Shown piece by piece: positions 8,202 through 12,003 of a stretch of 36,370 nucleotides of DNA (position 1 is the stretch's first letter; every line of letters starts with the position of its first letter). A program made the translations under genes and the position numbers. Under the pieces are notes generated by a model. That model worked only from the letters and a program-made list of their open reading frames with translations, had not been told where the DNA came from and searched no databases. The DNA is from a virus (lineage: Duplodnaviria > Heunggongvirae > Uroviricota > Caudoviricetes): IMG/VR virus record IMGVR_UViG_2617270997_000026, one strand, 5' to 3'.

Positions 8202-11200
8202 CAGCGGTACTCCTTACGTTGTTTCTGAGCCAGCAGACGCTCCAGCATTTTTTCCAGCTCATGCAGACTCATATTCAGGGCACCAGTCAGTCCTGCAGGC
8301 GCTGTGGTTTCCCTGCCATTGAGGAAAAACTGAGGATTAAAGCTGACCTGGATACCACCAGACGTTCCACCGCCGGTTGCAGCTGCACCACGGCCTGAAT
8401 ATCCGGCAGCCAGGATTTCAGGCGAGGGGATACGGGGAACATCCGGTGTCATCTCATTTGCCAGACGTTGCCCTGGTAAAATCGATGCCCGGGTGGAGAG
8501 CGGAATAGCGGGCATGGAAGACAAACTATTGATTACGGCTCCGATCGCATTTTTAGCAGACGACATAAACCCATTGATATCGGGCAACGGCATACTGAAG
8601 CGAACACCTGAAGTGTTATCCCGTATTTCTGGCCCCTGGATGCTCACGGGCATTCTGGGGAGCAGTTCACTGGCCATTCGCTGCCCGGCCAGAGCTGCAA
8701 GCGGAGTGGTCCGCTGCAGGCCAATGGCGGCCCCCTGCGCGATATTGTCACCAAAGCCCATAAACACGCGGCTCGGCGAATGAATGCCCAGCTTTTCGCT
8801 GAACCAGCCACTGATGCTGTCACCCATTCCGGTTACACTGGATTTGAGCGACTCCCATTTGTTTTTGATACCGTTAATCAGACCATCGACAAGATGGCCA
8901 CCGAAGTCGGTAAACTTTGCCGGCAGATCAACACCAAGATATTTCAGCGCAGCTGCAAAGGCTTTATAGAGCAGACCTGCCGGCGACCAGTTAATCAGCA
9001 GCTTACCAGTTCCCGCGATACCGCCGTTAAAGGCTTCCTGAATGTCAGCCCAGCACTGTTTAAACCAGCTACTGATGCTGTCACCCATTCCGGTTACACT
9101 GGATTTGAGCGACCCCCATTTGTTTTTGATACCGTTAATCAGACCATCGACAAGATGGCCACCGAAGTCGGTAAACTTTGCCGGCAGATCAACACCAAGA
9201 TATTTCAGCGCAGCTGCAAAGGCTTTATAGAGCAGACCTGCCGGCGACCAGTTAATCAGCAGCTTACCAGTTCCCGCGATACCGCCGTTAAAGGCTTCCT
9301 GAATGTCAGCCCAGCACTGTTTAAACCAGCTACTGATGCTGTCACCCATTCCGGTTACACTGGATTTGAGCGACCCCCATTTGTTTTTGATACCGTTAAT
9401 CAGACCGTCGATAAGATGGCCACCGAAGTCGGTGAACTTTGCCGGCAGAGCAACGCCGAAATATTTCAGCGCAGCCGCAAAGGCTTTATAGAGCAGGCCT
9501 GCCGGCGACCAGTTAATCAGCAACTTACCAGTTCCCACAATGCCGCCGTTAAAGGCTTCCTGAATGTCTGCCCAGCGCTGTTTAAACCAGCCACTGACTG
9601 CCCCCCAGTTGCGGTAGATAAGGTAAGCTGCTGCCGCGACAGCGGTGATAACGAGACCGATGGGATTCATCATCAGCGCACGTCCAATCCAGAGAACAGC
9701 ACGTCCGGCGAGCATAATTCCGCGAACCAGCCCCCCGGAGAGCACGCCACTCAGTGTTCTGGCTCCTCTGGCGACGGCGCTAAATCCGGTCACCAGCCAG
9801 CGGAGCTTACCGCCTTGCCCCAGTGCGAGCGACAGACGAAGCCAGTTGGCCCGAAGTAAAACAGCATTTTTCCAGACACTTACAAAGGGGGAAATAAGGA
9901 GATTCAGCCCCAGTTTGAGACCAACAGTCGCTATCTTAATCGCAAGGAGCGCACTGATGAGCTTAAAAGCCCCACTGACAAATTGCGGGTGAGTCGCTAC
10001 CCAGTGTTTTGCCCCCTGAATGAGTGGAAGCAGTTCCTGAGTCAAAGAAATAAAAGATGGAGCTAATTGATCGCCCAGCGTAATTGCCAGATCGCGACTG
10101 CTGACCATAAGTGTTTTAGTGGCTTCAAGGGGAGATTTCAGCCGCTGATCATAAGCACTGGCAAGCAAATCGTTATCCGCAGCCCTGAGAGCACCGGCAC
10201 GGATCTCTCGATATCTGTCCATGTTGGCCAGCATCGGGCGGATAAATGCCATGACCTGCATATCCGCGAACATATCGCCCAGACCAAAGTTTTTCGCCAG
10301 AGCCTGAAGTGCCTCATCTCTTGCCGTATCATTCTTTATTTTCATGGCTGATTTGAAGCCGGCCAGCGCTTCGGGGCTTTTGGCATTGAGGTAACGTTCT
10401 ATAACACTCAACATCCCTTCAATCGGAGAGATCCCCGCAGCTTTATAACTCGCAATAGATCCCTGCAAATCAATACCCAGATCAGCAAACTGTTTCTGAG
10501 TATCGCGGGCAAAAATTTTGGTAAGAAAGTTTTTAAAATTATTGGCTGCTTCGTCGGTGGAACCTGCACCGATTTTTGCTATCTGGAGACTGGCCCCGAT
10601 TTCAGCAACAGCCTCTTTTCCACTGGCAATACCCGCCATCATTGGGGCCAGGGACTGCATCCACTTGACCTGATCCGGGATTTCAAATGACCCCTGGTCA
10701 CCGGCATAAGCCATAATATTCTGAACGGCACCAAAATCTCTGGCCGCACCTTTCAGGGAGTTTTGCCAGACTGCGGCCACTTTTGCCCAGTCCTGAGCAG
10801 ACGTGCGTGTTGCCGTTGCCGCGCGGGCAATATCCGGCATCAGAAAACCGATATCTGACACATTATCAATATTGTCGCTGATGAGTGAACCCACCGCCTC
10901 CTGCAGCTCATCCTGATACTGATTGTATTTAAGCGCCCAGCCTTTTATCTGTCCGGCAAGTCCATCCCGCGTTTTATTGTCATATTTTGCGGTGATCGAC
11001 ATATCAATCATTTTGTCCTGAAAAGACATGGACTGCTGAACGGCAGGGGAAACCGTATGATAAACAGTCTGTGCCATGCCATACGCTTCAATCCCCTGAC
11101 CATACAGCGCCATGCGGTTAGCTTTCAGCGCATCACTGGTAGCGGATGCCGCTGACAGACGGCGCTGCTGGCGCTCAATTTGCTCCATGGTGCGGCTTAC

Positions 11201-11413
11201 CCGCAGCAGCTCGCTGTTGAGATGCTGCATCCGGGAAGAACCCAGTTGACCATAACGTTCTGTTGCACGGGTTAAAGCGTTCTGACGTTCCTGCAGGCGG
11301 CGTGAGGTATCGCTCAGGGAATCAAGCGCACGGCGGGTACCGCTCATTGCAGAACGGAATGTGCTGCCAATCATCCCGCCGATAACAACGCCGACTGAAA
11401 ACTGTCCCGACAT
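8201..11413 (-). CDS. Tail tape measure protein
   Basis: 1070 aa; ATG at 11413 with GGAGG RBS; alpha-helical Ala/Gln-rich N-terminus, hydrophobic central segments, internal 87-aa tandem repeats; position after tail chaperone. Confidence 0.9.
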   Translation of the reverse strand: MSGQFSVGVVIGGMIGSTFRSAMSGTRRALDSLSDTSRRLQERQNALTRATERYGQLGSSRMQHLNSELLRVSRTMEQIERQQRRLSAASATSDALKANRMALYGQGIEAYGMAQTVYHTVSPAVQQSMSFQDKMIDMSITAKYDNKTRDGLAGQIKGWALKYNQYQDELQEAVGSLISDNIDNVSDIGFLMPDIARAATATRTSAQDWAKVAAVWQNSLKGAARDFGAVQNIMAYAGDQGSFEIPDQVKWMQSLAPMMAGIASGKEAVAEIGASLQIAKIGAGSTDEAANNFKNFLTKIFARDTQKQFADLGIDLQGSIASYKAAGISPIEGMLSVIERYLNAKSPEALAGFKSAMKIKNDTARDEALQALAKNFGLGDMFADMQVMAFIRPMLANMDRYREIRAGALRAADNDLLASAYDQRLKSPLEATKTLMVSSRDLAITLGDQLAPSFISLTQELLPLIQGAKHWVATHPQFVSGAFKLISALLAIKIATVGLKLGLNLLISPFVSVWKNAVLLRANWLRLSLALGQGGKLRWLVTGFSAVARGARTLSGVLSGGLVRGIMLAGRAVLWIGRALMMNPIGLVITAVAAAAYLIYRNWGAVSGWFKQRWADIQEAFNGGIVGTGKLLINWSPAGLLYKAFAAALKYFGVALPAKFTDFGGHLIDGLINGIKNKWGSLKSSVTGMGDSISSWFKQCWADIQEAFNGGIAGTGKLLINWSPAGLLYKAFAAALKYLGVDLPAKFTDFGGHLVDGLINGIKNKWGSLKSSVTGMGDSISSWFKQCWADIQEAFNGGIAGTGKLLINWSPAGLLYKAFAAALKYLGVDLPAKFTDFGGHLVDGLINGIKNKWESLKSSVTGMGDSISGWFSEKLGIHSPSRVFMGFGDNIAQGAAIGLQRTTPLAALAGQRMASELLPRMPVSIQGPEIRDNTSGVRFSMPLPDINGFMSSAKNAIGAVINSLSSMPAIPLSTRASILPGQRLANEMTPDVPRIPSPEILAAGYSGRGAAATGGGTSGGIQVSFNPQFFLNGRETTAPAGLTGALNMSLHELEKMLERLLAQKQRKEYR
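8790..9600 (-). repeat. Three tandem 261-bp (87-aa) in-frame repeats inside the tape measure gene
   Basis: Antisense track ORFs start at 8784, 9042 and 9303 (period 261). Protein unit WFKQCWADIQEAFNGGIAGTGKLLINWSPAGLLYKAFAAALKYLGVDLPAKFTDFGGHLVDGLINGIKNKWGSLKSSVTGMGDSISS occurs three times. Confidence 0.85.
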
Positions 11414-11488
11414 AGTGGTTAACCTCCGGGGAAGGTGAAAAGACGTGAGGGGATAACGCAGAACAGCCGCTACTGGCGGCTGTCTGTA

Positions 11489-11906
11489 CTATGATTTGTC
11501 GCCGTACTCGCTTTTTATTTGCTCTTCAGCCTGCTCCAGCCACATCTCCAGATCGTCAGTATCGAGGGCATCAATCTCCCCCGGCTGAAACCGGAACCAT
11601 CTCGCCAGCAGCCCCTGCGCCTGCGTCAGCGCCCTGGTTGCTCTCACCCATCCCCGTGATGAGCTGAAATCGTTTCTGTAACTGCAGGTAATCAGCCAGA
11701 TCCATATTGTCGAGATCTTCCGGGAGAAGACCAGTACTGCGGGCAATCAGCGGTTCGTCCCAGTCTGCCGGGTTTTTGCTGATTTTGCGCACCTGCTTCA
11801 GGTCTTTTACCGTCAGGCGTTTCAGTTCAACCTGCTCAATTCTGGTGCCTGCAGCAGTGGTGAAGGGATAAGACAATTTAAAAGTATCGGATGGGGTCTG
11901 TGACAT
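11489..11906 (-). CDS. Putative frameshift-extended tail chaperone (E+E'-like); shift near 11574-11585
   Basis: Frame B (11489..11746) is +1 relative to frame A and ends in acidic tail GEIDALDTDDLEMWLEQAEEQIKSEYGDKS. Frame A ends GCC GGG GGA GAT TGA, a G-run compatible with -2 or +1 slippage. Confidence 0.4.
11571..11906 (-). CDS. Tail assembly chaperone (P2 gpE-like), upstream frame
   Basis: 111 aa; ATG at 11906 with AGGAG RBS; between tube-proximal genes and tape measure; overlapped by a second open frame. Confidence 0.6.
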   Translation of the reverse strand: MSQTPSDTFKLSYPFTTAAGTRIEQVELKRLTVKDLKQVRKISKNPADWDEPLIARSTGLLPEDLDNMDLADYLQLQKRFQLITGMGESNQGADAGAGAAGEMVPVSAGGD

Positions 11907-11982
11907 GATTGTGCTCCTGTGTAAGTTCAGGGCAGTATGTCGGGAGAAGCGCGTGACGGATATTAAAGGAGATTAAGAAGAA

Positions 11983-11996
11983 GGGGCCGGAGCCCC
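11983..11996 (-). terminator. Terminator-like hairpin inside tail operon (possible attenuator)
   Basis: Minus-strand GGGGC-uccg-GCCCC followed by UUCUUCUUAAUCUCC, 7 nt after the stop of ORF 12004..12285. Confidence 0.35.
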
Positions 11997-12003
11997 TGTG
12001 ATG

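Follow-up and report, generated by a model that had tools for sequence, protein, structure and literature searches.

[quoted passage not shown]

The tail assembly chaperone gene analyzed here, carried on a 36,370-nt stretch of tailed-phage DNA (the window), overlaps a second, +1-frame ORF, and comparison of related loci indicates that this ORF is translated from upstream of the G-run beside the chaperone stop codon. Approximately 150 relatives most likely place the slip ~85 nt upstream of that run, at CGA_UUU_C, a motif whose conservation at synonymous positions is evident from the alignments. Over this region, the window matches Escherichia phage PhiKM (genus Bcepmuvirus) at 99.5% identity and Klebsiella phage KP12 at 89%. 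Programmed frameshifting in tail assembly chaperones is textbook knowledge for tailed phages, the shift being −1 in lambda and P2 and −2 in Mu, with +1 cases elsewhere (PMC5009743, PMC2628397), and the window case is an unannotated member of this known kind.

Of 5,426 complete E. coli genomes, 641 contain the BcepMu-like prophage segment (window 11400–12000) with at least 80% identity and 584 with at least 99%; some have up to three copies. In E. coli, RefSeq lists the 111-aa chaperone alone; the E′ ORF and the frameshift are unannotated there and are also missing from the PhiKM and KP12 records. The literature searched yielded no report of +1 frameshifting in gpE-like or BcepMu-like chaperones, and one may still exist.

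Chaperone gene and its +1-frame extension

The chaperone gene lies in a contractile-tail module ordered along the minus strand as sheath (14236–12809), tube (12809–12288), a 93-aa ORF taken from the ORF list (12285–12004), chaperone (11906–11571) and tape measure (11413–8201; PF10145, E = 2.1e-20), with the sheath and tube genes identified by tube/sheath Pfam matches (PF04985, PF04984 and PF17482). This location between the tube and tape measure genes is the one expected for a frameshifted tail chaperone pair. The frame-0 chaperone ORF, a gpE-like short form of 111 aa (~12.0 kDa), matches PF10109 Phage_TAC_7 (chaperones E, 41 or 14) across residues 8–81 (E = 3.5e-22, 78.7 bits), passing the gathering cut-off of 25 bits, and carries the RefSeq product name 'phage tail assembly protein'. 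Its 3′ end reads GCC GGG GGA GAT TGA (11585–11571, minus strand), as the initial annotation had given it.

The second ORF, also described correctly in that annotation, reads without a stop from 11746 in the +1 (equivalently −2) frame and closes with TAG (11491–11489, minus strand) after an acidic C-terminal tail (EIDALDTDDLEMWLEQAEEQIKSEYGDKS). The frame geometry prevents a single −1 shift from connecting the two ORFs, bearing out the earlier exclusion of a standard −1 event. In the predicted long form, the +1-frame coding segment (11668–11489, minus strand, including the stop codon) would contribute an E′-like extension of 58 aa after F80. Its conserved core, AQGLLARWFRFQPGEIDALDTDDLEMWLEQAEEQ (11620–11519, minus strand), aligned with the E′ part of P2 gpE+E′ when a profile of six E′ sequences was compared with hhalign (probability 95%, E = 3e-8), with the window peptide AQGLLARWFRFQPGEID... 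paired with P2 E′. PF06528 Phage_P2_GpE scored 18.3 bits for the fusion and 14.7 bits for the bare ORF, below its gathering cut-off of 23. The profile alignment, along with this weak match, identifies the extension as a distant relative of P2 E′ lying outside formal Pfam PF06528 membership.

Using HMMs built for the chaperone and for E′, we scanned 337 related loci. E′ occupies the +1 frame relative to the chaperone in 328 of them, the −1 frame in four and the chaperone frame in five, a prevalence that puts the two-ORF +1 geometry far beyond chance. The four −1-frame loci, Pasteurella phage AFS-2018a and three relatives, carry a canonical G_GGA_AAG heptamer just before the stop. The five in-frame loci have one-base deletions at or beside the G-run, one of them together with an earlier indel, and are probably errors or decayed prophages.

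Selection on the +1 frame extends upstream of the G-run. Purifying selection clearly acts on the +1-frame peptide preceding the run (..QAQGLLARWFRFQP..), which can be aligned with P2 E′. From ~11615 to 11586, each +1-frame column retains one or two amino acids across two to seven codon variants, including an Arg written as CGG, AGG, AGA and CGC, while in frame 0 the amino acids are as numerous as the codons, and stops occur. Base changes across 11620–11586 are synonymous in the +1 frame and radical or nonsense in frame 0. W86 and the ..LLARWFRFQP.. stretch of the +1 frame are kept through synonymous changes in 89 aligned relatives, and in all 328 +1 loci, spanning Enterobacterales to Burkholderia, the ORF is open and under purifying selection.

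Several other features accompany the module. The 93-aa ORF, a 'hypothetical protein' in the PhiKM, KP12 and E. coli RefSeq records, has a sub-threshold DUF7739 match (24.9 bits vs. a cut-off of 27) and is not found at the equivalent position in P2, Mu or a Salmonella relative (L095). Between it and the chaperone gene, within the tail operon, lies a terminator-like hairpin (11997–11982, minus strand; AGGGGCTCCGGCCCCT followed by TCTTCTT) that is also kept in KP12. A GC-rich hairpin (CAGCCGC-CAGTA-GCGGCTG, 11482–11464, minus strand) directly follows the E′ stop and precedes the tape measure gene. Relatives carry hairpins of other sequence at the same place, some followed by a T-tract (e.g., GCAGCCGG-ATAA-TGGCTGC TTTCTTTCTT and GCAGCC-GGTAAC-GGCTGC TTTCTT), and the element may be an attenuator or an mRNA-stabilizing structure. 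Within the tape measure gene, 8802–9597 comprises three tandem copies of a 261-bp (87-aa) unit, 96% identical. The protein measures 1,070 aa in the window vs. 821 aa in KP12, and a sequencing gap interrupts the PhiKM record at the repeats; repeat copy number may set tail length and break assemblies.

Limits on the shift and a candidate slip motif

Stop codons in relatives delimit the shift. In 89 enteric relatives, aligned gap-free here, the last +1-frame stop lies 15 nt before the CGA of CGA TTT CAG, no +1-frame stop occurs from 12 nt before this CGA onward, and the first frame-0 stop follows 30 nt after it. Ralstonia phage YO107_2 and the Pseudomonas phage Komp_PAO1_1 group carry a +1-frame TGA three to four codons before the equivalent TTT and an invariant +1-frame Trp one to six codons after it. 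These limits confine the shift to ~35 nt, about 11677–11643, and a real shift into the +1 frame within this interval is very probable. Between F80 and W86, the +1 frame encodes five unconserved residues, so that the protein-level data fit a shift anywhere from F80 to W86.

Codon conservation singles out CGA_UUU_CAG (R79 F80 Q81; 11672–11664, minus strand), CGA_UUU_CAR in relatives, as the proposed recoding motif. Among 109 unique +1-type relatives, the F80 codon is TTT in 106, TTG in three and TTC in none, the following base is C in every one, and the preceding Arg codon is CGA in 96 and CGG in one. Two Phe codons in E′ divide between TTT and TTC at 64/28 and 83/9, and one Arg codon of E′ varies among AGA, CGC, CGG and AGG. 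On a UPGMA tree, F80 has undergone no synonymous change vs. four to seven at control Phe codons, and R79 one vs. 13–14 at control Arg codons. CGA makes up ~5% of Arg codons in the long ORFs of the window, a count that includes spurious ORFs, and TTT is kept in high-GC relatives that otherwise prefer TTC. In frame 0, F80 is itself conserved as part of the chaperone domain.

Within the bounded interval, UUU_C (11669–11666) is the sole conserved slip-prone tetranucleotide, and in the Pseudomonas phage group it contains the only homopolymeric codon of the entire overlap. The motif is also seen in Salmonella, Ralstonia, Pseudomonas and BcepMu relatives, reading UCC_UUU_CGC in BcepMu. In the record of the type phage BcepMu (AY539836; our locus L340, 24602–25363), gp42/gp43 are labeled as counterparts of lambda G/T that slippage joins; our alignments suggest that the pair is rather gp41 (PF10109-like) with gp42 (E′-like, +1 frame), and that UCC_UUU_CGC is their site.

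A wider scan including high-GC relatives gave 148 unique sequences, 120 of them counted as CGA_UUU_C. The remaining 28, all of Pseudomonas type (L267–L270 and L359–L411), have TTG, CTG or TTC in place of TTT, and in 28/28 the next codons are CGG GAA ATG, a string following the codon in only 3/16 TTT-type sequences of the same clade. The co-variation of TTT loss with a fixed CGG GAA ATG supports this neighborhood as the place of the shift but shows that part of the family lacks the UUU_C site. Where UUU_C is lost, another slip site, perhaps C_GGG_AAA_U, may take over, with a tRNA re-pairing that is not obvious.

We infer from this conservation that F80 is the slip codon and that the direction is +1 rather than −2; a +1 slip of tRNA-Phe at UUU_C is the exact site we favor, with better than even confidence. 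Most ribosomes would remain in frame 0 to TGA (11573–11571), yielding the 111-aa short form, and a presumed minority would slip +1 some 85 nt before that point. When UUU (F80, 11669–11667) occupies the P site, tRNA-Phe (anticodon GAA) would re-pair with the overlapping UUC (11668–11666), and decoding would resume in the +1 frame at AGC UCA UCA CGG GGA UGG ..., continuing to TAG (11491–11489). The long product would be a 138-aa gpE+E′-like protein of ~15.9 kDa (...LQKRF/SSSRGWVRATRALTQAQGLLARWFRFQPGEIDALD..., slash at the junction), with the predicted junction ...LQKRF/SSSRGWVR... and predicted peptides FSSSR and GWVR. The rare CGA 5′ of UUU, which would occupy the E site and be read by I:A wobble, probably helps the slip. 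If lambda G/GT and P2 E/E+E′ are a guide, both forms would bind the tape measure protein and the extension would recruit tube subunits.

At classical +1 sites, the codon in the A site is decoded slowly, for instance a stop or a rare Arg codon. The 0-frame A-site codon is CAG/CAA in the window clade, CAG not being rare in E. coli, and CGN appears there only in the BcepMu and Pseudomonas clades. A search for stimulatory RNA structure downstream found none (window fold z = −1.09; consensus of 11 relatives −3 kcal/mol, no compensatory pairs), and the site matched no Rfam family. A Shine-Dalgarno-like GGAG 13 nt upstream, judged by eye, occurs in some relatives and is missing from the window. AAA_C before CGA was rejected as a slip site, its codon being replaced by CGT, GAC, GAG or ACC in relatives, as was a −2 event at the F80 UUU, for which re-pairing with GAU would be implausible.

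The G-run and other alternative readings

The initial annotation proposed a frameshift other than −1 in the tail chaperone, located at the very end of the upstream ORF in the G-run GCC GGG GGA GAT TGA (11585–11571, minus strand), with tRNA-Gly slipping on GGG_GGA or a +1 slip next to the stop. The kind and frame of this event hold (+1/−2, no conserved start of its own), but its place and mechanism do not, the run not being the conserved shift site. Frame 0 of KP12 already ends at GTT TAG, 15 nt before CCGGGGGAG, and the four differences between KP12 and the window from this codon to the G-run are all synonymous in the +1 frame (ARWFRFQ). An early TAG is found in most of 93 loci (PhiKM, KP12 and 91 others gathered in the first two collection scans). 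In a 99%-identical E. coli variant, codon 91 changes from CAG to TAG, a synonymous ACC-to-ACT change in the +1 frame; the resulting 90-aa protein is present on 914 contigs, with frame 0 ending 20 codons before the G-run. The run itself is broken or absent in many related phages, reading CCG GGT GAA, CCT GGG GAG, CCG AGT GAG or CCC AGT GAA, changes that are synonymous or conservative in the +1 frame. GGGGGA is no more frequent in the window than chance predicts (20 occurrences vs. 19.6 expected from shuffled sequence).

A shift within GGG_GGA_GAU_UGA (11582–11571), through −2 slippage of tRNA-Gly or stop-stimulated +1 slippage, is one of several readings to be weighed against UUU_C, and we consider it very improbable. 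By Mu-type −2 criteria, the run (11582–11577) permits perfect re-pairing (GGA to GGG) in the window lineage and adjoins the stop codon, but it is unconserved and lies downstream of the frame-0 stop in most relatives. The +1 frame is selected upstream of it, and a product shifted there would lack the first 13 of the 34 residues (about a third) of the P2-aligned E′ core. In-frame fusions through one-base deletions at or next to the run in several assemblies could speak for it, but their junctions are scattered, as expected of homopolymer errors or decay; overall, the comparisons indicate that the run is without significance for the shift. A shift five codons beyond F80, at ACG_GGG_A (11657–11651, minus strand; G85), either +1 (GGG to GGA) or −2 (GGG to CGG), is unlikely rather than remote. 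This secondary candidate of the window lineage falls within the bounded interval, resembles the verified −2 site of Mu (CGG_GGG_CGA), which likewise shortly precedes a +1-frame Trp, and places GGG_A directly before the invariant +1-frame TGG; the third position of its +1-frame GGN codon varies freely and is synonymous. It is ranked second because it is missing in many relatives, which read ACT GGG C, ACA GGC C (L079), AGC ATG G (Salmonella, BcepMu) or GAA TTC G (Ralstonia). The G85 column includes six codons for four amino acids, and −2 re-pairing of GGG with CGG would be poor. Rated just below it, and also unlikely, is a shift inside the interval by another mechanism, e.g., out-of-frame A-site decoding without P-site re-pairing, or on a different tetranucleotide. 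The TTG/CTG/TTC clade (28/148 unique sequences), which shifts without UUU_C, and the failure to find a stimulator are compatible with such a mechanism, but it leaves the strict synonymous-site conservation of CGA_UUU_C in the window clade unexplained.

Two further readings dispense with ribosomal frameshifting. Separate translation of the +1 ORF from an internal start, as a small GpE-like protein, is less probable still than a shift at the G-run. The automatic annotation of Pseudomonas phage Komp_PAO1_1 includes a 38-aa ORF from an internal ATG, and the window +1 ORF contains TTG at 11746 and GTG at 11647. The initial annotation had itself raised an independent start for the downstream frame, and the comparison of relatives found no conserved one: the KP12-group ATG is ACG in the window, and the window GTG is GCA in others. 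Pseudomonas and Ralstonia relatives have no ATG, GTG or TTG between the upstream +1-frame stop and the conserved Trp, which excludes independent initiation in those relatives. P2 E′ is made only as a fusion, according to its record note and to PMC3931495 citing Christie 2002. Transcriptional slippage as the source of the long form, or a +1 ORF that is a non-functional relic, is the least probable reading of all, there being no A or T run longer than T3 to set against an ORF that purifying selection keeps open.

One-base deletions recur in or beside the G5 run (equivalent to window 11582–11578) in loci L090, L081 and L076/L293 and in proteins P0003–P0005 and P0007. In several independent assemblies, some nanopore-based, the result is a fusion of frame 0 with the C-terminal half of E′; the deletions are sequencing errors at a homopolymer or else mark a mutational hot spot in prophages undergoing decay. 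Natural 138-aa single-ORF fusions were tried and discarded as a guide to the junction. Their junctions (ESNQ/ALTQ, KSDK/TLMQ, LITG/WVRAT and VSAG/EIDAL) are scattered, often with second frameshifts, and they look like assembly errors or decay.

Comparison with known frameshift systems

A +1 slip at CGA_UUU_C would have consequences for annotation and for frameshift prediction. Once the slip site is fixed, the correct annotation would include the 138-aa product instead of the 111-aa protein only. Choosing the homopolymer next to a stop codon can misplace a slip site by tens of codons, and stop-codon bounds combined with synonymous-site conservation across relatives locate it far better. If CGA_UUU_C works as proposed, it would constitute a minimal +1 signal, easily tested in E. 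coli. In the PRFect actinobacteriophage training set, 350 of the 2,718 slippery sites counted as positive are forward (+1), and no general motif for forward frameshifts was identified (PMC10274946). The window family offers a clean, well-conserved bacterial +1 example for training such predictors.

More tentatively, the enteric +1 signal CGA_UUU_CAR might be a previously undescribed bacterial motif, with stimulation coming from an inosine-read E-site CGA rather than from RNA structure, a Shine-Dalgarno element or a slow A-site codon. The recoding signal would then have moved and changed direction several times within the chaperone family, being −1 on T6G in P2, −1 on G_GGA_AAG in the Pasteurella type, +1 on UUU_C in BcepMu and enteric phages, and +1 at a second site in C_GGG_AAA_U in the Pseudomonas clade. 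This extended proposal is possible but less likely than not.

P2 is the closest characterized homologue, and the direction of the shift in the window family differs from it. P2 gpE/gpE+E′ arises by a programmed −1 frameshift at T6G, experimentally shown in work by Christie et al. (2002; cited in PMC3931495 and GenBank AF063097). Both systems combine a PF10109 chaperone with an E′-like extension (57 aa in P2, 58 aa in the window), and they share the gene order FI, FII, E, E′, T. The −1 site GGT TTT TTG lies at the same chaperone-domain end, within ~4 residues in alignments, at or near a Phe codon. P2 shifts −1 on G_TTT_TTT_G, whereas the window has E′ in the +1 frame, no heptamer and a candidate P-site +1 slip on UUU_C.

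In Mu gp41/Mu_56, Xu, Hendrix and Duda reportedly described in 2004 a −2 frameshift at CGG_GGG_CGA (PMID 15469818). The Mu record notes 'verified −2', and both CGG_GGG_CGA and the +1-frame ...GGEW... can be read from the Mu sequence. Mu shares with the window a tail chaperone upstream of the tape measure gene, an extension in the +1/−2 frame, a CGA in the site and an early Trp in the new frame. In Mu, the slip goes two bases back on a run of five Gs while CGA occupies the A site, whereas the G-runs of the window are unconserved and its CGA lies 5′ of the slip codon; the earlier −2 model for the window copies Mu but fails the comparative test across relatives. Lambda G/GT, the conserved tail-assembly-chaperone frameshift of tailed phages (reviewed in PMC5009743), likewise yields two N-terminally identical products, as predicted for the window, from overlapping ORFs directly upstream of the tape measure gene, but the window pair has no sequence similarity to lambda G/T.

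The proposed UUU-to-UUC re-pairing of tRNA-Phe has counterparts among +1 sites elsewhere. Influenza A PA-X shifts +1 at UCC_UUU_CGU, with re-pairing from UUU to UUC accepted as the mechanism (PMC3498833), FseA, the activator of the rhizobial integrative element ICEMlSymR7A, shifts +1 from UUU to UUC with 4–13% shifting, also detected in E. coli (PMC4755241), and amalgaviruses use UUU_CGN (PMC5052127). The window resembles these sites in the proposed re-pairing and in having a conserved 5′ codon, and UUU_CGN itself is matched by the relatives BcepMu (UCC_UUU_CGC) and Pseudomonas (GUG_UUU_CGG). Unlike them, the window is a bacterial system with an unrelated gene, the next codon in its clade is CAG/CAA and not a rare Arg codon, and the conserved neighbor is the 5′ CGA.
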